Part shown: piece by piece, positions 5,179 to 27,863 of the stretch
Position numbering within the stretch: the first letter of the stretch is position 1
Layout of the letters: each line of letters begins with the position of its first letter
Assembly: GCA_018818185.1 (NCBI GenBank)
Contig: JAHISL010000105.1
Span: forward strand, 1-34,893
Reading direction: 5' to 3'
Origin: Patescibacteria group bacterium
GTDB lineage: Bacteria; Patescibacteriota; Microgenomatia; UBA12405
DNA length: 34,893 nt
Made by a program: the position numbers and the translations under genes
Notes under the pieces: model-generated
The model's database searches: none
Seen by the model: the letters and a program-made list of their open reading frames with translations, nothing else
Told to the model about the DNA's origin: nothing

Positions 5179-6864
5179 TTAAGTATAGAAAGAAGTAATT
5201 TCTGAAACAAGATTTTTTGAATCAATGATTTTCGATTCTTTGTCGGATCTTAGTTTAAACTCTATTCCTCCACTCTCCTGGCTTCTTTTGCTAATAACTA
5301 AACGAATTGGGATACCAATTAGATCGGCATCAGCAAATTTGGCACCAGCGGAAACAGAACTGCGATCATCGAAAAGAACTTCAATATTTTGGGAAAGTAA
5401 TTCTTGATAAAGATCCTCGCCTAAACCGTCAAGAGCAATTAAATGAACCTGGTAGGGGGCAATTTCTTTGGGCCAAATAATCCCCTTTTCATCGTGGTGA
5501 GTTTCGACGTCGATGGCTAGGGCCCGGCCAATACCAATACCATAAGAGCCCATGTACATTTTTTGAGAAGTACCGTCTTGGGCAATAAAGTTTCCGTCCA
5601 TGGGATCACTATAGGCAAAACCAATATTAAAGATATTGCCGAATTCTACTGCCTTAACCAGTTTTAGTTTTTCTTTTTTACATTGAGGACAAAGATAATC
5701 AACTTGAGTTTCGGCAATGTCGCCGACAATATCAGTTTGGTAATCTCGACCAAAATTTATATTTATTAAATCGATATTTTTTTTGTTGGAACCACCATAA
5801 GCATTTTTTAGATTTTTTAGAGAATCATCGGCAACGATGAGAACATCTTTGATACCAACAGGAGAAATAAATCCAGGTTCGGAATGAAGTTTGTTTCGGA
5901 TTTCTTCATCGGTGGCATGACGAAGCTCATTGGCTTGGATCAAGTTTTTTAGTTTAGTTTCGTTGACCATGAAGTCACCTCGAATAATGGCCAAGATAAA
6001 ACGGCCGGAATCATCAACAAAAACAACATCTTTAATTTGTTGCCAAAGAGGTTTTTGGTGAAGAGCCACTCCGTCTTCCATGGTGTTACCACGAGGAGCT
6101 TTGACTTCAGAAAGATCGGCTTCGGCTTCTGAAGAATTTTTATCTTCTTTGACAAAGGTAGCTTTTTCAAGGTTGGCGGCATAGCCGCAGGAACAGGTGA
6201 CGATAGTGTCTTCACCAACAGTGGATTCGACCATAAACTCATGAGAAACAGAACCACCAATAGCACCATTGTCGGATTCGACGATAGTGACATTTAAGTC
6301 CATTCTTTTGGCAATTTCCAAATAGGCATCCCAGTATTTTTGGTAAGTAATTTTTAGATCAGCTTCGTCGACATGAAAAGAGTAGCCATCTTTCATGACA
6401 AACTCGCGGACACGAAGGAGACCACCAGAGGGGCGAGCTTCATCGCGGAATTTCTGAGAAAATTGGTAGATATTGATAGGTAAATCTTTATAGCTCGGTG
6501 CAAACTGCTTGACCAGATCGAGCATGATGACTTCGGCAGTGGCACCAAGGGTGAACTCGGCACCATTACGATCGGTAACCCGCATCATGGCGGCACCAAA
6601 TTTTTTATCACGATTGGCTTGTTGCCAAAGTTCGAGGGGGTGAAGGGTGGGAACAATTAGTTCTTGAGCACCAGTCTTTTCAACTTCTTGCCGAATAATT
6701 GATTCTATTTTTCGACAAACCTTGAGGCCAAGAGGTAAAAAAGTGTATCGTCCGGCGGAAAGTTGACGGATAAAACCCGCCTGGAGAAGAAGACGATGAC
6801 TAGCAACGGTGGCATCCTTGGAAACTGTTTTGCTGGTTTTGCCAAATAATTGTGAATATCTCAT
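5179..6864 (-). CDS. proS: Prolyl-tRNA synthetase (bacterial type)
   Basis: 561 aa. The N-terminus MRYSQLFGKTSKTVSKDATVASHRLLLQAGFIRQLSAGRYTFLPLG and class II motifs are typical of bacterial ProRS. A TAAAAT box at 6870-6875 lies 5 nt upstream of the ATG. Confidence 0.9.
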   Translation of the reverse strand: MRYSQLFGKTSKTVSKDATVASHRLLLQAGFIRQLSAGRYTFLPLGLKVCRKIESIIRQEVEKTGAQELIVPTLHPLELWQQANRDKKFGAAMMRVTDRNGAEFTLGATAEVIMLDLVKQFAPSYKDLPINIYQFSQKFRDEARPSGGLLRVREFVMKDGYSFHVDEADLKITYQKYWDAYLEIAKRMDLNVTIVESDNGAIGGSVSHEFMVESTVGEDTIVTCSCGYAANLEKATFVKEDKNSSEAEADLSEVKAPRGNTMEDGVALHQKPLWQQIKDVVFVDDSGRFILAIIRGDFMVNETKLKNLIQANELRHATDEEIRNKLHSEPGFISPVGIKDVLIVADDSLKNLKNAYGGSNKKNIDLININFGRDYQTDIVGDIAETQVDYLCPQCKKEKLKLVKAVEFGNIFNIGFAYSDPMDGNFIAQDGTSQKMYMGSYGIGIGRALAIDVETHHDEKGIIWPKEIAPYQVHLIALDGLGEDLYQELLSQNIEVLFDDRSSVSAGAKFADADLIGIPIRLVISKRSQESGGIEFKLRSDKESKIIDSKNLVSEITSFYT

Positions 6865-6893
6865 GGCCTATTTTAGCGAATAAGTGACTATTT

Positions 6894-6904
6894 TGATATA
6901 TAAT
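6894..6904 (+). promoter_or_regulatory. Extended -10 promoter (TGATATATAAT) 6 nt upstream of the ATG at 6911
   Basis: The plus strand reads TTTTGATATATAAT-CGCAAA-ATG with no SD. This is the same geometry as the MTAE-family cassettes. Confidence 0.45.
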
Positions 6905-6910
6905 CGCAAA

Positions 6911-7147
6911 ATGGGCGAGAAATTATGTCTAAAATGCATTGAAGAAGGGCGCAGTGTGTGCCTAATTGAAGAAAAAATGCGGATATTGCAATCAAAAGTT
7001 CCAGAAGTTGCCGACAATGAAAAAAATTTGGAAATAATTCAGAGACTAAATATGGAGGAAAAAGAAATTCATGAATTAGGGCGTAAAAGGGGTTGTCATC
7101 ATCACAATGACTTTACCCTAAGTTTGCCTAGATTTGAGTTAAAATAA
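6911..7147 (+). CDS. Hypothetical small Cys/His-containing protein (78 aa)
   Basis: The ORF-track entry 6884-7147 starts at a non-ATG codon. I prefer the ATG at 6911 (MGEKLCLKCIEEGRSVC...GCHHHND) because it sits 6 nt after a -10 box. The CxxC...C...CHHH pattern suggests metal binding. No family recognised. Confidence 0.4.
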   Translation: MGEKLCLKCIEEGRSVCLIEEKMRILQSKVPEVADNEKNLEIIQRLNMEEKEIHELGRKRGCHHHNDFTLSLPRFELK

Positions 7148-7227: not shown

Positions 7228-7503
7228 TTAGCCCCTACGACCAAATAGAGAAACTTTTTTCTTAGTTGATTGACTATCCTTGTAGGCACGAACTTCTATT
7301 CCACCGATATTTATACTACGATTTCCAGTAACAGTTTCAGTAGATTGAGGAGTATCACCTTTATAGGTTGAGTGAATAAAGCCATCTTTTATTGGCATAA
7401 TTCCGTGCCTTATTCCATCATTGTAGATAGGATATTCACCTTGAGGTCGAGGAAAGTTTAAAAATGTTTCTGAACCTGTTTCAAAAATTACTTCTGCACC
7501 CAT
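7228..7503 (-). CDS. Hypothetical 91-aa protein; probable short member of the MTAE family found at 20678-22420
   Basis: It starts MGAEV, with first codons ATGGGTGCAGAAGTA versus ATGACGGCAGAAGTA in the array. It has DG-x9-DGF-x25-GIEVRAY, matching the array layout [DN]GF-x22-25-G-x-x-[ILV]-[KR]. A TGTTATAAT box lies upstream at 7536-7544 on the reverse strand. Confidence 0.45.
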   Translation of the reverse strand: MGAEVIFETGSETFLNFPRPQGEYPIYNDGIRHGIMPIKDGFIHSTYKGDTPQSTETVTGNRSINIGGIEVRAYKDSQSTKKKVSLFGRRG

Positions 7504-17186: not shown

Positions 17187-18059
17187 TTAGGCCATGGGGG
17201 TGGGATTAGGTTTATTGGTCCCAGGAGCAAGGCCAGCACTTTTTTCAACGTTTTCGATCGGGGTAGGTTCAGGATTTTGAGGTGTGGAATCGTCGGGCTG
17301 AGTAGCACGAAGACAGATAGCACCAGCTTCAAAAGTTTCTGGAGAAACGTTGACGGAAAAAGATTGGGTAGCGACACGAAGGCCGATAAGCAAATCTTTC
17401 CCAGAATCTAGATCAAGTGTTAAGCCAAGCATAGGTAGCAAGAAAGTGAAAATTTCGGAAAAGGGAGCATCGGGATCCATAAGGGTGGCCTTGGCCCAGC
17501 TTTTGGAAACCTGTTGAGGGGTAATTAGAATCCAGTTTCCTTTTTCTACCATAGAAATGGCGGCGCCTAAGGGAGACTCATCACCAAGCATGAAACAGAC
17601 ATCAGCGGAAGAACCGTTGTTGTTGATCATAATTTGCTTAGTTTCAACCTTGGCAGCACCGGATTTGGTCTTAACAACCAAATTTAGATGACCACCGTCG
17701 TCGTTGTAGGAAACAGCTTCAATTTGGTCAATTGGATAATCTAGGGTAACAACCAAGTCGGAACTGGAATAGGTATCGGTCAATAGTTCTAAACCGCTAA
17801 GTTTTGAATAATTTTGATCGGTCTTTTGAGGACAAAAGACACGAGCCTCTTTTCCTTGTTTCTTTAAAGAGATGGCCAAGGCAAGAGCTGCACCGACGCT
17901 ATCGACAGAAAGAGTGGGAACCACAATAAGCGCGCTTTTGGCTGTATCAACGAGATTTTTTATTTCAGTGACATTATAATTTTTCATATTTGTCCTGCTT
18001 ACAAATAAATTATTATTTTTAGAATTTGATTCAAAAACAGAGGTATTTAACCTGTTCAT
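17187..18059 (-). CDS. Hypothetical protein, possibly a catalytically degenerate DHH (NrnA-like) domain with a Pro-rich tail
   Basis: 290 aa, with an alternative start at 17987 (MKNYNV...). The segment ALIVVPTLSVDSVGAALALAISLKKQGKEARVF resembles DHH motif I (H..pDGDalGS.laL...l...Gk.v.v), but the His and DGD are replaced. Some bacteria place nrnA after infB-rbfA, so the position fits. Confidence 0.35.
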   Translation of the reverse strand: MNRLNTSVFESNSKNNNLFVSRTNMKNYNVTEIKNLVDTAKSALIVVPTLSVDSVGAALALAISLKKQGKEARVFCPQKTDQNYSKLSGLELLTDTYSSSDLVVTLDYPIDQIEAVSYNDDGGHLNLVVKTKSGAAKVETKQIMINNNGSSADVCFMLGDESPLGAAISMVEKGNWILITPQQVSKSWAKATLMDPDAPFSEIFTFLLPMLGLTLDLDSGKDLLIGLRVATQSFSVNVSPETFEAGAICLRATQPDDSTPQNPEPTPIENVEKSAGLAPGTNKPNPTPMA

Positions 18060-18061
18060 TT

Positions 18062-19513
18062 TTAATTCTTATAGGCTATTATAACATCCTTTAGCTTAAA
18101 GTCAACATAGGGACGAAAAGTCATGCCACACTCGTGACCGACTTTGATTTTTTCAACAATATCTTTGCCTTGACGAATACCTTCAATAGTGGTGTTTTTG
18201 ATGATTTTGCCATCGCGCATGAGATGGACCGTATTTCCTTTTACCATTTCACCTTTGCTAATTTTTACACCGGCAATACGAACTTTGTCGATTTTAAACT
18301 CGGCAATAATGGTTCCTTCACCTAAGATAGTCTCTTCGATGGTTGGGTCAAGCATCTTTAAGACCTGGGATTGAATGTCTTCGATTATTTCGTATATAAT
18401 TTTTGATTGAAAGATAGACACTTTTTCATTGTCGGCGAGATTTTTGATAGTTTTACTGACGGGAACATTGAAAGCAAAAAGTTGAGAATGACTGGTTTTG
18501 GCGGCGATGACATCGTTGTCATTAACTGGACCAACACCGGCGAAAACAATGTTGACGTCATCACTGAGACTACCTTTTAAAGCTTCGAGGGTGCCTTCTA
18601 CATCAGTTTTGACAACAATATTTAGATGAGGAACTTCTTCAGCGTCGGGATCTTGAGTTGTGGAAACGTCGGGTGAGGAAACTTTGACAGTTTCAGGTTC
18701 AATTAGGTGGTCGGTAACAAGAGAGCCAACTGAGGGCACTTTTTCGAAACCTAGAATCTCTACAGGAGCACTGGGTAGGGCCTCTGAAATATTTTTACCA
18801 TCTAAGTCTAAAAGAGCTTTGACCTTTCCGGCGACATTTTCGGCATAAACTGTATCTCCGAGACGGAGGGTGCCTTTTTTGACAATTACGGCTGCCAGAG
18901 GGCCACGAAGTTTGTCGAGTTTTGATTCGATAACGACAGCTTCGAAGGGGGCATCAGGCTCATCTTTGAGCTCCATAATTTCGGCGTTCAAAAAAATTAG
19001 ATCTAAAAGCGCATCAATCCCCTCACCGGTTTTGGCAGAAACAGGGACAACTGAAATCTGACCACCATATTCTTCGGGGGTAAGATCCATTTCAACTAGC
19101 TGACCCTTGACCATTTCGGGTTGGCGAGTATCAAGATCAAATTTGGTCATGGCAACAATGACGGGAAGATTGGCTTTTTTTATCTGGGCAATGCATTCCT
19201 TTGTTTGAGCCATAACGCCGTCAACGGCAGAAATAACCAAAACAACTAAATCGGTGATATCAGCTCCACGAGCGCGCATGGCACAAAAGGCGGCATGGCC
19301 AGGAGTATCAATAAAGGTTACCGGTTTGATTTTACCGTTCTTTAGTTTGACTTCATATTGATATGAAGAAATATGCTGAGTAATTCCACCAGATTCCTTA
19401 CGAGCAACGCTGGCACTTCTAATCTTATCTAAAAGAGTCGTTTTTCCATGGTCAATGTGACCCATAACGGCAACGATAGGCGGACGATATTTGGTGGCCG
19501 AATTTGTAGTCAT
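18062..19513 (-). CDS. infB: Translation initiation factor IF-2 (short form starting at the G domain)
   Basis: 483 aa. [22 protein letters not shown] lies near residue 8, followed by DTPGH and the NKxD-equivalent region. It sits downstream of nusA. Confidence 0.92.
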
Positions 19514-19532: not shown

Positions 19533-20522
19533 TTAACTTTTGTTGGCAGATACCTTGATTTCTAGTCCACAAAGCATTCCTGCCAAACGGACATTCTCAC
19601 CACCGGCACCAATGGCCAGAGCAAGTTGATCTTCGGGAATTTCAACCTGAGCAGTGGTGTCGTCGACAGAAATTACTTTGACATCGCTAGCAGGAGAAAG
19701 AGCGTTGACAATGAACTGAGAAAGGTTTTTGGCATAGGCGACAACGTCGACTTTTTCGTCTGGAGGTAGCTCGGTCAATACTGACTGAATTCGAGAACCT
19801 TTTTGACCAATACAGGAACCGACAGGATCAATTCCATTTTGAGAGGAAGAGACGGCAACCTTGGTGCGTTGACCGGCTTCACGGGCAATTTTTTCGATAA
19901 CCACGGTGTGATTGTTGACTTCGGGAACTTCGCGAGCAAAAAGTTGTTTGACAAATTCGGGATCACGTCGAGAAAGAATAATGTCTTTTCGACCAGTAAC
20001 AGCATCTTCTTGGATTTCTTTTATTAGAAATAGTTTTTTAGAACTAATATCAAGTATTTCATTCTTGATTTGTTCGTCTTTGGGAAGAACACCTTCTGTT
20101 TTGCCGATACCGATGGTTTTTTTATAAGGATCAACTCGGAGAACAACACCAAGAGTAAGGGTGCCAATCTTTTGATGATATTCACCAACAACGGTGTCTC
20201 GTTCAACTTCACGAATTTTTTGGTCGATGACCTGTTTGGCGGTCATGGCGGCAATGCGACCGAAACCGGGAGGGGTAACGTCTTTTCTCTCTTCACCCTC
20301 AACTTCAAAAATGGCAAAGGAACCAGATTCGGGAGAAAGATCAACTTCGAAGACAGATTCTTCGGAGATAATAACACCATGCTCTTTTTGATCACGCTTA
20401 TAAGCGGAAATTAAACCTTGTTCAATGGCGTCGATAATCTCTTGAGGATCGATGTTGCGTTCACCGGCGATTTGAGCGACGGCGGCGGCGAATTCAGTTT
20501 TTGGTAGTCTTCTAATATCCAT
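19533..20522 (-). CDS. nusA: Transcription termination/antitermination factor NusA (no C-terminal acidic repeats)
   Basis: 329 aa with an N-terminal domain, S1 and two KH regions (GSCIGQKGSRIQ, AIGAGGENVRLAG). An AAGGAG SD lies at 20527-20532. Confidence 0.92.
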   Translation of the reverse strand: MDIRRLPKTEFAAAVAQIAGERNIDPQEIIDAIEQGLISAYKRDQKEHGVIISEESVFEVDLSPESGSFAIFEVEGEERKDVTPPGFGRIAAMTAKQVIDQKIREVERDTVVGEYHQKIGTLTLGVVLRVDPYKKTIGIGKTEGVLPKDEQIKNEILDISSKKLFLIKEIQEDAVTGRKDIILSRRDPEFVKQLFAREVPEVNNHTVVIEKIAREAGQRTKVAVSSSQNGIDPVGSCIGQKGSRIQSVLTELPPDEKVDVVAYAKNLSQFIVNALSPASDVKVISVDDTTAQVEIPEDQLALAIGAGGENVRLAGMLCGLEIKVSANKS

Positions 20523-20537
20523 ATTTCTCCTTTTGGT

Positions 20538-20568
20538 AAAACAAAAATGGGGACACGACGGCCCCCAT
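20538..20568 (-). terminator. Intrinsic-terminator-like hairpin in the nusA leader (candidate attenuator)
   Basis: The reverse strand reads AUGGGGGC-CGUCGU-GUCCCCAU, an 8-bp stem that includes one G-U pair. UUUUGUUUU follows, then ACCAAAAGGAGAAAU-AUG. Confidence 0.6.
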
Positions 20569-20596
20569 TCCGAAATACCACAGATTTAACTTGATT

Positions 20597-20605
20597 ATTA
20601 TAACA
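20597..20605 (-). promoter_or_regulatory. nusA extended -10 promoter TGTTATAAT
   Basis: The reverse strand reads AGTGTTATAATAATC, about 75 nt upstream of the nusA ATG. The terminator-like hairpin lies between this box and the SD. Confidence 0.5.
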
Positions 20606-20642
20606 CTAAATAGCTAAAAAATTGAGGCTAAAACATAAATAC

Positions 20643-20692
20643 TGGAAGAGATTGAGATATTATGATATATTCCGTACATGACGGCAGAAGTA
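20643..20692 (+). repeat. MTAE-family 5' cassette, copy 1 (extended -10 TGATATATT at 20663-20671, 6-nt spacer, ATG at 20678)
   Basis: It reads TGGAAGAGATTGAGATATTATGATATATTCCGTAC-ATGACGGCAGAAGTA. It is about 74 percent identical to copy 2 over the 35 nt before the ATG, by hand count. Confidence 0.6.
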
Positions 20693-21088
20693 ACAGGTGG
20701 AAAGATTTGTTTGGTAGGAGGGGAAGAAACAATTAAGTGGAAAATTGATGATTCGGGAAAGAGAGCTCAATTAAAAAAAGTTGAAGGTAGGTTAGAGTTA
20801 AGTATTTTTCAGGGAGATATTGAAGAAACCACCTTTAGAAAATGTGTAGTTATTGTTCGAGACGGTGAAGTCTATAGAACTGACAGAAATAGTAATGTCG
20901 AAAGGACAGTTGTACCCCTCGGAAACTATGGAATTTATTTTCGTAAAAATAAAGTAGTAAAAATTGCGGGAACATTTAAAGGATTTGATACTTTTCCTAA
21001 GATTTCTGGACAAACTACCTACAGACACGGAGAAATGATTCAGACAAAGAAAGGCATTAAGATCAAAGCAATAGAAAATAAACGTTAG
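20678..21088 (+). CDS. MTAE-family protein 1 (136 aa, unknown function)
   Basis: It reads MTAEVTGGK...RDGEVY...FKGFDT...GIKIKAIENKR. The alternating hydrophobic pattern suggests an all-beta fold. It has no TM helix or signal peptide. Confidence 0.6.
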   Translation: MTAEVTGGKICLVGGEETIKWKIDDSGKRAQLKKVEGRLELSIFQGDIEETTFRKCVVIVRDGEVYRTDRNSNVERTVVPLGNYGIYFRKNKVVKIAGTFKGFDTFPKISGQTTYRHGEMIQTKKGIKIKAIENKR

Positions 21089-21124
21089 ATTTAGAAAATT
21101 AAGCAAGCTGCAAGAGATAAGTTG

Positions 21125-21174
21125 TAGAAGAGACTGAATTATTGTGATATATTTCGCATATGACAGCAGAAATA
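21125..21174 (+). repeat. MTAE-family 5' cassette, copy 2 (TGATATATT at 21145-21153, 6-nt spacer, ATG at 21160)
   Basis: It reads TAGAAGAGACTGAATTATTGTGATATATTTCGCAT-ATGACAGCAGAAATA. Confidence 0.6.
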
Positions 21175-21573
21175 AGAGGAACACTTGCCTATCTAATAAA
21201 AAGAGAGGGGGTAGATACCGAGCTGGAAGCTATTCCTTCAAGCTTTTTAGTGGAAGCTTATGAGGGAAAACTGATATTAAGACAAACAGAAGGTGATGTA
21301 AATGAAAAAGCCAGTATATATTCTGGTTTAAGGGCAGTGATACATGGAGGGATAGTAATTTCGACAAAAAATAGTGAAAAGGTGACCCTTCGTGACGGGG
21401 AACAAGCGGTCGAAATTTTACCTGATGGAACAGTTCGAACGTTTGTCGGGACACTAAATGGATTTGAGGTCAGAGGAGGAGAAAATAGACTTCTCAAGAA
21501 AGAATACACTGCCGGTAAAAAGATAATCACCCCCAGGGGAACTGAGATTAAAGCAATTAGGGGAGATCTGTAA
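21160..21573 (+). CDS. MTAE-family protein 2 (137 aa)
   Basis: It reads MTAEIRGTL...IHGGIVI...LNGFEV...GTEIKAIRGDL. Confidence 0.6.
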   Translation: MTAEIRGTLAYLIKREGVDTELEAIPSSFLVEAYEGKLILRQTEGDVNEKASIYSGLRAVIHGGIVISTKNSEKVTLRDGEQAVEILPDGTVRTFVGTLNGFEVRGGENRLLKKEYTAGKKIITPRGTEIKAIRGDL

Positions 21574-21980
21574 TGACGGCAGAAGTTGATAAAAAAATCG
21601 TTGTACAAGTACAAAAAAAAGAAAGAATCACTTTTGAGATGGATGATGGAGACAGTCTTGAAATTCATGCACTTAAGGGAACGAGCGGTGAATTGGAGGT
21701 GGTCAGGGAACGGATAATTCAGTGTTCTGGTCCAATAAGGGGAGTAATTTTTAAGGGGAGATTTTATGTGAGTGAGGGAGAAGACAATATAGTTGAGCCA
21801 GGAGACAGGGTGTTTCACGTGTCTGATGAAGGAAAGGGATTAGAAATAATTGAAGGAAGGGAAAATGGTTTTCGAATAACAAGATCCAACGGTGATACGA
21901 CTGAGTATCATTCAAAAAATACAGTTGTTTTGAGGGGTCCAGCGGGAGTAGTATTAAAAGCAAGACAAAACAATAAGTAG
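21573..21980 (+). CDS. MTAE-family protein 3 (135 aa), translationally coupled to protein 2
   Basis: It reads MTAEVDKKI...FKGRFYV...ENGFRI...GVVLKARQNNK. Its start overlaps the protein 2 stop (TAATG at 21571-21575). A GGGGAG SD lies 7 nt upstream, inside the 3' end of gene 2. Confidence 0.6.
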   Translation: MTAEVDKKIVVQVQKKERITFEMDDGDSLEIHALKGTSGELEVVRERIIQCSGPIRGVIFKGRFYVSEGEDNIVEPGDRVFHVSDEGKGLEIIEGRENGFRITRSNGDTTEYHSKNTVVLRGPAGVVLKARQNNK

Positions 21981-22027
21981 AAGAAGTTGTACTATTGTGA
22001 TATATTTTGCATATGACTGCGGAAATA
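21978..22027 (+). repeat. MTAE-family 5' cassette, copy 3 (TGATATATT at 21998-22006, 6-nt spacer, ATG at 22013)
   Basis: It reads TAGAAGAAGTTGTACTATTGTGATATATTTTGCAT-ATGACTGCGGAAATA. It is about 81 percent identical to copy 2 over the 37 nt before the ATG, by hand count. Confidence 0.6.
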
Positions 22028-22420
22028 AACACAGAACTTAATCATGTAGTTTTGACTCCAGGACAAGACGTGGGGGTTGGATTTCAATTTAGGAGATACG
22101 GAAATATCTGTTTTAAAAGGGGTGAGTTTCCAATACAGGTGATAGCTGATGGTAATGAACTGCCAATTGAAGCAAATGTGGTGATATATGACAGAACAAT
22201 ATATACAATTGCAAAAGAAAGGCCGTCATCTTTAACTTTAGAAAATTGTGGGACAAGAGCGTTGAGCATAACCGAGAAAGGAATTCAAGAAATATGTATA
22301 ACAGATAATGGTTTTTCAGTAAGGGAAATTTATCCCGGAGAAAGAAGGCCTGTTTTTTTTGAAGGTGGAATAACAATGGAGCTTGATTCGGGAGTTAAGT
22401 TGAGAGGAAAAAGAGGTTAG
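22013..22420 (+). CDS. MTAE-family protein 4 (135 aa)
   Basis: The ORF track starts at a TTG at 22007 (MHMTAE). The ATG at 22013 restores the family N-terminus: MTAEINTEL...IYDRTIY...DNGFSV...GVKLRGKRG. Confidence 0.6.
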   Translation: MTAEINTELNHVVLTPGQDVGVGFQFRRYGNICFKRGEFPIQVIADGNELPIEANVVIYDRTIYTIAKERPSSLTLENCGTRALSITEKGIQEICITDNGFSVREIYPGERRPVFFEGGITMELDSGVKLRGKRG

Positions 22421-22431
22421 TTGGCTATTGT

Positions 22432-23298
22432 TTACAAATCCAATTCTTTGATCAATTGTTTTTGTTTGGCGGAGAGACGATAAGGAATGACGATGTTAAG
22501 ACGAATATAAAGATCGCCAACACCGTAACCACTGACATCTTTAATCCCCTGGCCTCGAAGACGGACCAGGGTGTTGGGCTGGGTACCTGATTTAACACGA
22601 ATTTTTAATTTATCGGTAAGGGTAGGTACTTCGATAACATCACCCAAAATTGCCTGTGATATGGTTATATTTTGACTAACGTAAACATCATTACCATCGC
22701 GCTTGAAAACTTTATCGGGCAAAACATCAATGTATAAATTAAAGTTGGTAAATTTGATACGCTGACCGTCGTCGACCCCGGCGGGAATTTTTATTTTCTT
22801 CTCTGAGCCGTCAATATTGACTTCTTTTTCACAGCCAAGAGCAGCATCTAAAAATGAGATTTGAATCTTGTAGGTTGGGACTTGGCGACGTGACTGGCCA
22901 CCAAAGTTAACGCCACCGGTACCGCCAAAAAATTGCTCAAAGATATCGAAAGGGTTGCTAAAACCGCCAAAATCAAAGTCAGCACCTTGCTGGCCACCAT
23001 TGGAAGATTGCCAAGTAAAGTCGAAGGGACCATTTTGTTGAGTGTAGGTATGACCGCCAAAATTGCCGCCAGCATTGGGGTCAAAGGCGGTATGACCGTA
23101 TTGGTCGTAGGCGGTTTTTTTCTGGTCGTTACTGAGAACTTCGTAGGCTTCGTTGATTTCTTTGAACTTTTCCTCCGCATCGGCAGATTTGTTTCGATCG
23201 GGGTGCCACTGCATGGCTTGCTTACGATAAGCCGACTTGATCTCCTCTTTTGAGGCACCTTTTTTGACTCCAAGTGTTTCGTAAAAATCAGGTTTCAT
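22432..23298 (-). CDS. dnaJ: DnaJ-type co-chaperone lacking the Cys-rich zinc-finger domain (CbpA-like architecture)
   Basis: 288 aa. The J domain is [33 protein letters not shown], followed by a G/F-rich region and C-terminal substrate-binding domains. It has no CxxCxGxG repeats. Confidence 0.85.
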
Positions 23299-27665: not shown

Positions 27666-27863
27666 ATGGCATACAAAACAGAAACAGAATCTGGTGGACC
27701 TATTAGTCCAGAAGCAGAAAAGATTATTGAAAGAGATAAGAGAAGAGATGCGAGAAGGCCTGCAGGAAAAGTAATTTTATTAGATGAGGAAGTATTGGTA
27801 ATGGGTAACAATAATGTAGTAACTGGAGTAAGAGGAAGAAGGATACGAATAAAAAGCTGCTAA
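27666..27863 (+). CDS. Hypothetical 65-aa basic protein
   Basis: The ORF lies directly behind a consensus extended -10 box. Its stop codon abuts the dut stop with zero intergenic nt. No family recognised. Confidence 0.4.
   Translation: MAYKTETESGGPISPEAEKIIERDKRRDARRPAGKVILLDEEVLVMGNNNVVTGVRGRRIRIKSC

Follow-up and report, generated by a model that had tools for sequence, protein, structure and literature searches.

Tandem arrays of small, soluble and diverged paralogs are familiar from interbacterial-defence islands and from the orphan immunity genes of type VI secretion system (T6SS), contact-dependent inhibition (CDI) and Rhs polymorphic toxins, where copy number and content vary between strains within a fixed hotspot, evolution is fast and decay is frequent. 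Here we describe an array with the same features, comprising four genes (A to D) whose products start with the residues MTAE and which lie between dnaJ and nusA on contig JAHISL010000105.1 of a Patescibacteria group bacterium. The whole 34,893-nt stretch analysed is referred to as the window; L-numbers denote retrieved loci of other genomes and P-numbers proteins found in searches. The MTAE array differs from orphan immunity arrays in that no toxin gene or toxin remnant, secretion system or recombinase is found nearby, and its products are unlike any Pfam or PADLOC immunity family, neutralisation being a hypothetical role suggested here by analogy.

Two further systems invite comparison. First, the variable lipoprotein loci of Mycoplasma (vsp/vlp) also occur in reduced genomes as tandem genes of strain-variable copy number, with a conserved 5' block (promoter and first codons) ahead of a divergent body. 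By contrast, the MTAE proteins have no lipoprotein signal peptide or transmembrane segment, and no homopolymer tract or invertible element was seen in the array, whose sole repeats are promoter blocks. Second, phage anti-defence (anti-CRISPR-like) clusters likewise encode small proteins of unknown fold behind strong promoters, with a modular content that varies between close relatives. The MTAE array, however, is chromosomal, sits between housekeeping genes and has no match among PHROGs and no adjacent helix-turn-helix regulator gene. A strain-variable tandem array in a hotspot is thus a phenomenon already known, and what is new is the protein family, possibly its fold, and the cassette architecture. 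Our best overall explanation, which we advance tentatively, is that the array consists of accessory hotspot cassettes that are organised as leaderless units and encode variable binding or neutralising proteins.

Bacteria of the candidate phyla radiation (CPR), or Patescibacteria, have tiny genomes with few recognisable defence or interaction genes, yet they are in close contact with hosts and phages. The locus is unusual in that its whole content is swapped between strains whose neighbouring genes are 98-99% identical, in that each unit carries a conserved promoter predicted to be leaderless and in that the predicted fold has no relatives in PDB or BFVD. It offers a compact, tractable entry to how such organisms generate strain-level functional diversity and may add a new fold, although, with about 11 proteins in the whole of the public data, its importance beyond the clade will probably be modest as long as no function is demonstrated.

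The MTAE genes and their insertion site

Genes A (20678-21088, 136 amino acids, MTAEV start), B (21160-21573, 137 amino acids, MTAEI start), C (21573-21980, 135 amino acids, MTAEV start) and D (22013-22420, 135 amino acids, MTAEI start) are consecutive plus-strand open reading frames (ORFs) that occupy the dnaJ-nusA interval. The ATG of C overlaps the stop codon of B as TAATG, and D ends 11 nt from the convergent dnaJ stop. Mechanical ORF calling starts D at a TTG at 22007, which lies inside the promoter, and the ATG at 22013 yields the shared MTAEI start; the in-frame TTG is not the start of D. The same four genes were called by independent gene callers in public assemblies, and NCBI lists array genes as hypothetical proteins (KKD37_04600/04605/04615) of 'Patescibacteria group bacterium'.

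Pairwise evidence for homology of the four proteins, taken alone, is weak: identities are 22-31%, BLASTP is significant for A-B alone (1e-4) and the other pairs reach Smith-Waterman z-scores of 0.8-2.5. A MAFFT alignment runs from end to end, with M1, T2, A3, E4, G37, G82, G102, F103 and G126 invariant in the four proteins. We then conducted a leave-one-out test in which the first five residues were removed, a hidden Markov model (HMM) was built from the remaining family members and the left-out protein was scored against 1000 shuffles. Scores were 26, 51, 31 and 33 bits for A, B, C and D, respectively, and 18-54 bits for four relatives from other genomes, and 0 of 1000 shuffles exceeded 13 bits. 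On the basis that these scores, obtained without the first five residues, beat all shuffles, A-D are true homologs independently of the MTAE tag, and their shared motifs are not due to chance.

These results agree for the most part with a preliminary description of the window made by eye, which had reported an array of diverged paralogs of about 20 percent identity, four plus-strand ORFs of 135-137 amino acids in a window of nearly all minus-strand genes, with no transmembrane helix or signal peptide. The measured lengths and identities bear this out, every other Pfam-annotated gene is on the minus strand, the maximum 19-residue hydropathy in A-D is 1.26 with no transmembrane segment or signal peptide, and the profile test for chance motifs separated the paralogs (26-51 bits) from shuffles (13 bits or less). 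As to the motifs it had listed, MTAE[VI], [NK]GF and the C-terminal G-x-x-[IL]-[KR] are common to all four proteins, and the mid-protein motif [IV]-x-[DG]-[GR]-x-[VI]-[YI] is exact in A, B and D but only loosely kept in C.

The same description had placed the array in a gap between two separate operons, a view that has to be revised in the light of related genomes. The window NusA is 80-82% identical to its nearest species representatives and places the organism in Candidatus Shapirobacteria. In most Shapirobacteria hrcA-grpE-dnaK-dnaJ-nusA-infB are joined in a single co-directional cluster, in which 30-150 bp separate dnaJ from nusA. In 67 of 80 retrieved species-representative loci, nusA directly follows dnaJ on the same strand (the junction lies at about 6000-7000 in most of L010-L089), with a gap of 150 bp or less in 44 and of 159-1716 bp in 23. 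DUF559 (PF04480) endonuclease-like genes lie at the junction in four species (L018, L024, L028, L034), and other cargo includes a Ham1-like gene (L047), a receiver-domain gene (L078) and several unknown ORFs. The DUF559 genes resemble the array in their insertion site, small size, stand-alone and patchy occurrence and sometimes opposite strand, and differ in that their product is an alpha/beta domain of nuclease type, which is not homologous to the MTAE proteins. Because most species keep dnaJ and nusA adjacent, the single cluster is the ancestral state, and because 44 of the 67 species show adjacency while 23 have larger gaps, several of them with unrelated cargo, the junction is an insertion hotspot across Shapirobacteria. 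Compared to array-less Shapirobacteria, the lineage-specific insert of the window spans 20622..22431 (plus strand) and is bounded by the nusA promoter region and the stop codon of dnaJ; in blastn comparisons with L011, L014 and L106, similarity stops at 20610-20621 and restarts at 22430-22442. The array is thus lineage-specific accessory cargo in a spacer of about 20 nt between the dnaJ stop and the nusA promoter. In the survey of relatives that the preliminary description had recommended, nusA and dnaJ adjoin each other without the array in the 44 species, and the number of array genes varies between 0, 1, 2 and 4.

Could the genes modulate the neighbouring operons, either by way of products that target NusA or DnaK-DnaJ or by convergent transcripts that run antisense into dnaJ? 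The array points away from nusA and towards dnaJ, and the 11 nt between the D and dnaJ stops showed no terminator-like site, so that mutual antisense read-through is possible. However, the operons work without the array in at least 44 related species, and with unrelated cargo in others. The position of the array is therefore best explained as a permissive insertion site, and we consider a regulatory role highly improbable.

Two observations on other loci concern the same junction. In L030 (1394-2321), an unrelated tandem pair of unknown ORFs (130 and 134 amino acids) lies on the dnaJ strand; upstream of each ORF are 67 nt that duplicate the dnaJ 3' end (91% identical) together with a TGTGTTATAAT-type promoter, and this pair looks like an independent tandem duplication. 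Many contigs (L010, L015, L016, L018 and others) that share the dnaJ-nusA synteny of the window and encode a Shapirobacteria-type NusA with 65-80% identity to its own carry the title 'uncultured Gammaproteobacteria bacterium' or 'Candidatus Methanoperedens sp.' and are probably mislabelled or mis-binned records of metagenome-assembled genomes.

Searches for further members delineated a small family. A HMMER scan of 1.84 billion representative proteins with the four-paralog profile returned A-D along with P0005 (142 amino acids, MTAEIRG start), P0006 (138 amino acids, MSPARIE start), P0008 (132 amino acids, MTAEIIK start) and P0007. The last (766 amino acids, E 1.4e-6 with the four-sequence profile) is a PPC-repeat protein whose repeats weakly match a large number of unrelated Pfam models; as it has no score with the eight-sequence profile, it was rejected as spurious. 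A metagenome scan with the promoter motif described below, combined with a further profile search, added P0009 (142 amino acids, MGAKFEK start), its 65%-identical ortholog P0010, a frameshifted P0009 copy and a pair of 74-75-residue short forms (MSPARIE...), most of the 20 metagenome matches to the motif being chance or unrelated. A word-indexed homolog search with B alone returned only B itself. About seven members beyond A-D bring the family to some 11 distinct proteins across all public data, with a single narrow clade of Shapirobacteria as their source, and among the 80 species representatives the family is missing in all except for one short form. The 'undescribed system' proposed at the outset stands as an undescribed family, a claim limited by this narrow distribution.

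Every member sits between nusA and dnaJ on the strand opposite to both. There are four copies in the window, two overlapping genes in L001-L008 and L109, one copy each in L009 and L106, one full-length copy with one short form in L112 and one short form in L014. The N-terminal tag is not invariant, with MSPARIE and MGAKFE variants and M-[TSG]-A-[EK] overall. Array copies decay in some genomes, as seen in the frameshift of L102 and the short forms of L014 and L112; the L102 copy (1118-1543), from another metagenome, is a frameshifted and apparently pseudogenised version of the 142-residue MGAKFEK member P0009. We also noticed a 91-residue ORF in the window (7228-7503, minus strand), just downstream of the RNase J gene, which starts with MGAEV and contains KDGF followed some 26 residues later by GGIEVRAY. 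It echoes the N-terminus, NGF and C-terminal motif of the MTAE family, is close in size to the short forms of L014 and L112 and is called as a gene in public assemblies; it has no Pfam match, and its score against the family HMM (E 0.4-1) is not significant.

This distribution bears on the possibility that a mobile element or phage once landed at the junction and left the genes behind, for instance as former anti-defence genes. They are small and hypervariable with strong promoters, their GC content (0.36-0.39) is slightly low compared to the adjacent operons (0.43-0.45), and four other species have DUF559 endonuclease genes at this very site. On the other hand, neither the 50,697 phage records nor the 72,556 plasmid records gave a tblastn match to B, the phage records gave none to D, and no PHROG or PADLOC match was obtained. 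The window contains no integrase, recombinase or tRNA (tRNA and Rfam scans gave no match), no repeats or target-site duplication are visible at the insert boundaries, and all members sit at one chromosomal site. We judge an origin of this kind very improbable. As for targets of diversity-generating retroelements, the window has no reverse-transcriptase domain and 20523-22520 has no template/variable repeat pair, the only repeats in that interval being the promoter/5' blocks and short A-B motif remnants.

Cassette turnover and promoter blocks

Comparison with a two-copy strain (L001/L002) revealed how the array changes. Nucleotide identity to the window is 94% across the flanks, and NusA, IF2, DnaJ and PNPase are 99.4%, 99.4%, 97.9% and 98.8% identical at the protein level, respectively. 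DNA similarity spans nusA, the promoter and roughly the first 20 nt of the leading array gene, is then lost and comes back exactly at the dnaJ stop, and the best cross-strain pairs are B/P0005 (46% amino-acid identity) and D/P0008 (35%). Between the window and the L001 strain, the rates of non-synonymous (dN) and synonymous (dS) change in flanking genes are 0.003-0.02 and 0.07-0.40 (dN/dS 0.02-0.05), as opposed to a dN of 0.51-0.67 and a dS of at least 1.2 for the best array pairs, where saturation makes dN/dS unreliable. As this divergence exceeds the neutral distance of the flanks, it cannot have arisen in place. The content of the array thus turns over by gain, loss and replacement of cassettes rather than by local divergence, with alleles or paralogs that predate the strain split and were exchanged or differentially retained.

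Local divergence is measurable for a single pair, the true orthologs P0009 and P0010, which can be used for this purpose because their dS (0.391) is no higher than that of their flanks. With a dN of 0.207 and a dN/dS of 0.53, compared to a dN of 0.016-0.046, a dS of 0.55-1.16 and a dN/dS of 0.016-0.073 for nusA, dnaJ, dnaK, grpE and hrcA on the same contigs, the protein evolves roughly ten-fold faster than its neighbours. Its length is kept, as a 142-residue ORF without indels at 65% identity, and the last 17 residues are identical. Despite fast change, the family as a whole likewise retains its length, its tag (M-[TSG]-A-[EK]), the turns formed by glycines and a core of alternating hydrophobic positions. 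Such fast evolution is the behaviour expected of arms-race genes.

The main rival explanation is that these are dispensable lineage-specific ORFs with little or no function, either young or decaying, that drift under relaxed constraint in a permissive hotspot and are transcribed because the promoter block co-duplicates with them. Such drift would account for the dN/dS of 0.53 (versus 0.02-0.07 for neighbours), for the absence of the family from 80 species representatives save one short form, for the frameshifted copy and the truncated short forms and for proteins without a recognisable domain. Yet about ten diverged members keep an ORF of 132-142 amino acids, the motifs and a predicted common fold though synonymous sites are saturated, dN/dS stays below 1, the C-terminal 17 residues of P0009 and P0010 are unchanged, the promoter is conserved far beyond neutral expectation, and the expansion to four copies suggests a benefit. 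Retention of ORF length, motif and promoter across saturating divergence argues against drift, which we consider unlikely.

The promoters in question are conserved blocks that precede A, B and D and form a three-copy family of 68-nt direct repeats (D1). The block of A (20630..20677, plus strand) contains a -35-like CTGGAA (20642-20647), a TG (20663-20664) and the -10 element TATATT (20666-20671), that of the B-C unit (21112..21159, plus strand) a TG (21145-21146) and TATATT (21148-21153), and that of D (21965..22012, plus strand) a TG (21998-21999) and TATATT (22001-22006), with 6 nt between the -10 element and the ATG in each case. The motif TTGTGATATATTTYGCATATG has 0 chance matches expected in the window. 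Seven blocks from four genomes align with the invariant core TGATATATT..G.A.ATG and share a layout of a -35-like T[TA]G[AG][CA]A, an 18-nt spacer ending in TG, TATATT, 6 nt and ATG; in L009 and L112 the -35 is a perfect TTGACA (TTGACA-18 nt-TATATT). TGnTATATT ends 6 nt before the ATG not only of A, B and D but also of the first gene of L001, L009, L014, L106 and L112, and no Shine-Dalgarno (SD) sequence is present upstream of the genes that carry the block (A, B, D and the relatives' first genes). We took a -10 element 5-9 nt upstream of the ATG together with the lack of an SD as the signature of a leaderless gene, and A, B and D all display it. Because the -10 element lies 6 nt before the ATG and no SD is present, the A, B and D mRNAs are predicted to be leaderless, with transcription starting at the A of the ATG, and we infer three transcription units (A, B-C and D) driven by sigma-70-type extended -10 promoters.

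C has no promoter block; it has an SD-like GGGGAG at 21560-21565 and, given the TAATG overlap, is probably translationally coupled to B. P0008 similarly lacks the block, has the SD GGAG and starts in overlap with the upstream stop codon. Both still begin with MTAE[VI], encoded by differing synonymous codons (ACG/ACA/ACT, GCA/GCG), and since they keep the tag without the block and with different codons, the tag is constrained at the protein level rather than being a by-product of the promoter. The leaderless layout extends to other parts of the genome: a TGnTAnAnT element lies 3-9 nt before the ATG of three other window ORFs, at 27666 (plus strand), 13575 (minus strand) and 12872 (minus strand), of 65, 207 and 77 amino acids. 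It is therefore a genome habit and not specific to the array, and starts of the leaderless type are apparently frequent here; nusA, by contrast, is preceded by the canonical SD AAGGAG. A literature search on leaderless translation in Patescibacteria and on hypervariable loci in Shapirobacteria found nothing relevant.

The repeats may also explain how cassettes move. Promoter and first seven codons are 100% identical over 38 nt (B-C block) between the window and the two-copy strain, and just upstream of a promoter block both L009 and L112 carry 32-37 nt that repeat the dnaJ 3' end (84-89% identical); in L112 this repeat supplies the promoter TTGACA. Recombination probably finds its homology anchors in the conserved block of promoter and first codons and in the dnaJ 3' end, and cassette duplication and replacement would proceed through such conserved blocks. 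Among the short dnaJ-3' duplications, only those of L009, L112 and L030 are real; a derivation of the window promoter blocks from the antisense dnaJ 3' end was rejected, local alignment being no better than for shuffles.

Predicted fold and candidate roles

The proteins are soluble, all-beta and about 135 amino acids in length, and form a lineage-restricted family. AlphaFold with only the four-paralog alignment gave a predicted local distance difference test score (pLDDT) of 41 and was discarded; with a seven-member alignment, B was modelled at a pLDDT of 78.1 and a predicted template-modelling (TM) score of 0.76, with 13 beta strands and zero helix. We required a Foldseek E of 1e-3 or less and a TM score above 0.5 to call a structural match. 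Foldseek of this model against PDB and BFVD gave 0 matches with E of 1e-3 or less, the best ones (E 0.025-0.04, query TM score at most 0.39, root-mean-square deviation (rmsd) 8-15 A) being to propeller blades and beta sandwiches. Sequence searches were similarly negative: the best Pfam E-values, 0.057 and 0.092, fall far below family cut-offs, NCBIfam has no match, and hmmsearch against PDB sequences gave a best E of 0.45 (a PROPPIN blade). Both the all-beta look and the failure to assign a known family that had been noted by eye thus hold up, the latter across Pfam, NCBIfam, PHROGs, PADLOC, PDB sequences and Foldseek (PDB, BFVD). On current evidence from a model built on a shallow alignment, the family would adopt an all-beta fold without assigned relatives in PDB or BFVD.

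The blade matches raise the possibility that the proteins form homo- or hetero-oligomers, a beta assembly made up, for example, of partial propeller-like or sandwich units that complement one another, in which the co-transcribed pairs B-C and P0005-P0008 co-assemble. Like beta-propeller blade proteins (RSL lectin, TolB, the acylaminoacyl-peptidase propeller, PROPPIN), which provide the top yet insignificant matches, the MTAE proteins are all-beta hairpin meanders with Gly and Asp-Gly turns. The weak Foldseek and HMM matches are mostly to such blades, Pizza designs included, protein size approximates three blades, and translationally coupled pairs occur in two strains. However, all these matches have an E of at least 0.025, a query TM score of at most 0.39 (at most 0.33 for propellers) and an rmsd of 8-15 A, and no blade repeat of about 40-50 amino acids is apparent: an internal three-blade repeat was rejected by hhalign self-comparison of the eight-member alignment (best off-diagonal E 0.73). 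Furthermore, L009 and L106 carry a single copy, and strain-level replacement fits a structural role poorly. We regard an assembly of this sort as improbable.

About as improbable, in our view, is a role as effectors that an episymbiotic CPR cell would export or direct at its host by a non-Sec route, with the M-T-A-E tag as recognition signal, and that would diversify against host targets. A conserved N-terminal pentapeptide on hypervariable proteins, kept even without the promoter, strain-level variation and the host-attached lifestyle (CPR bacteria live attached to host cells) speak for such effectors. The proteins have no signal peptide or transmembrane segment, though, the window has no secretion genes, and the tag is not invariant (MSPARIE, MGAKFE). 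Two further candidates were dismissed. First, a DNA mimic or nucleic-acid binder was rejected on the basis of charge, as the isoelectric points of the four proteins span 5.1-9.7 (9.7 for A) with no consistent bias. Second, an N-terminal Thr acting as an Ntn-type nucleophile is unlikely, given that relatives have Ser or Gly there and that the domain would be too small.

We propose instead that the MTAE proteins act as stoichiometric binding or neutralising proteins, immunity-like or inhibitor-like, in which a stable beta scaffold would leave the surface free to vary. The conserved columns comprise the N-terminal tag, glycine turns and alternating hydrophobic strand positions, and these turns and strand positions, together with the 13 predicted strands, lend model-based support to a scaffold with a variable surface. 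The partner would itself vary between strains and might be a toxin, a phage protein or a host-cell protein, and several diverged copies could broaden specificity. In its most specific form, namely that the array encodes strain-specific neutralising proteins of a new fold (immunity or anti-phage/anti-host binders), unique to a CPR clade and swapped as 'leaderless promoter + gene' cassettes by homologous recombination beside dnaJ, this proposal is rather doubtful; if true, the locus would be a minimal variable defence locus in an ultra-small genome.

Several points weigh against neutralising proteins, and the binding or immunity-like role, while plausible, is the weakest step of our explanation. 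The same points apply to the immunity, antitoxin or anti-defence families with which the preliminary description had compared the array. First, the 35-kb window is without toxin, secretion, phage, defence, integrase or reverse-transcriptase genes in Pfam-based annotation. The toxin check covered all ORFs of at least 110 amino acids, each of which belongs to a housekeeping family or has no family assignment, none being toxin-like; the gene tables of L001 and L112 contain no toxin-like gene either, so that no linked cognate toxin or remnant accompanies the array in any of the three. Second, A-D match no immunity or defence model, the best PHROG (E 0.039) and PADLOC (E 0.031) hits not being credible. 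Third, hotspot cargo is miscellaneous (Ham1, receiver domain), and location alone does not imply defence. Fourth, the dN/dS of 0.53 comes from a single pair and fits relaxed constraint as well as diversifying selection. Finally, the AlphaFold alignment comprised only seven sequences and three of five models fell below a pLDDT of 70, such that the absent Foldseek match could be partly due to model error.

Flanking genes and the nusA leader

On one side of the array lie nusA (19533-20522, minus strand) and infB, and on the other dnaJ (22432-23298, minus strand) followed by dnaK, grpE, hrcA, rmuC and dut, all on the minus strand. The remaining Pfam-annotated window genes, also on the minus strand, encode FtsK, ProRS, RNase J, UDG, a Lon-like AAA protein, PNPase, an AddA-like helicase-nuclease and GatB. 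DnaJ (288 amino acids) has J and C-terminal domains with no zinc-finger domain match, NusA (329 amino acids) has NusA_N and KH domains with no S1 or C-terminal repeat matches, and IF2 (18062-19513, minus strand) has only 483 amino acids; these shortened proteins are consistent with CPR genome reduction. Directly downstream of infB, a 290-residue ORF (17187-18059, minus strand; 266 amino acids in the L001/L003 gene tables) has no Pfam match and has changed faster between the two strains than any other flank gene (dN 0.020, dS 0.40).

NusA is known to regulate its own synthesis in other bacteria. In the window, the nusA leader (20544-20605, minus strand) consists of an extended -10 element, TGTTATAAT (20597-20605), then a GC-rich hairpin with a T-run (20544-20571) and then the nusA SD. 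This arrangement is kept in 12 Shapirobacteria, with some compensatory changes at the loop base. The position of a terminator-like hairpin after the nusA promoter suggests a transcription attenuator, which may autoregulate NusA and may double as the terminator of the dnaK operon.

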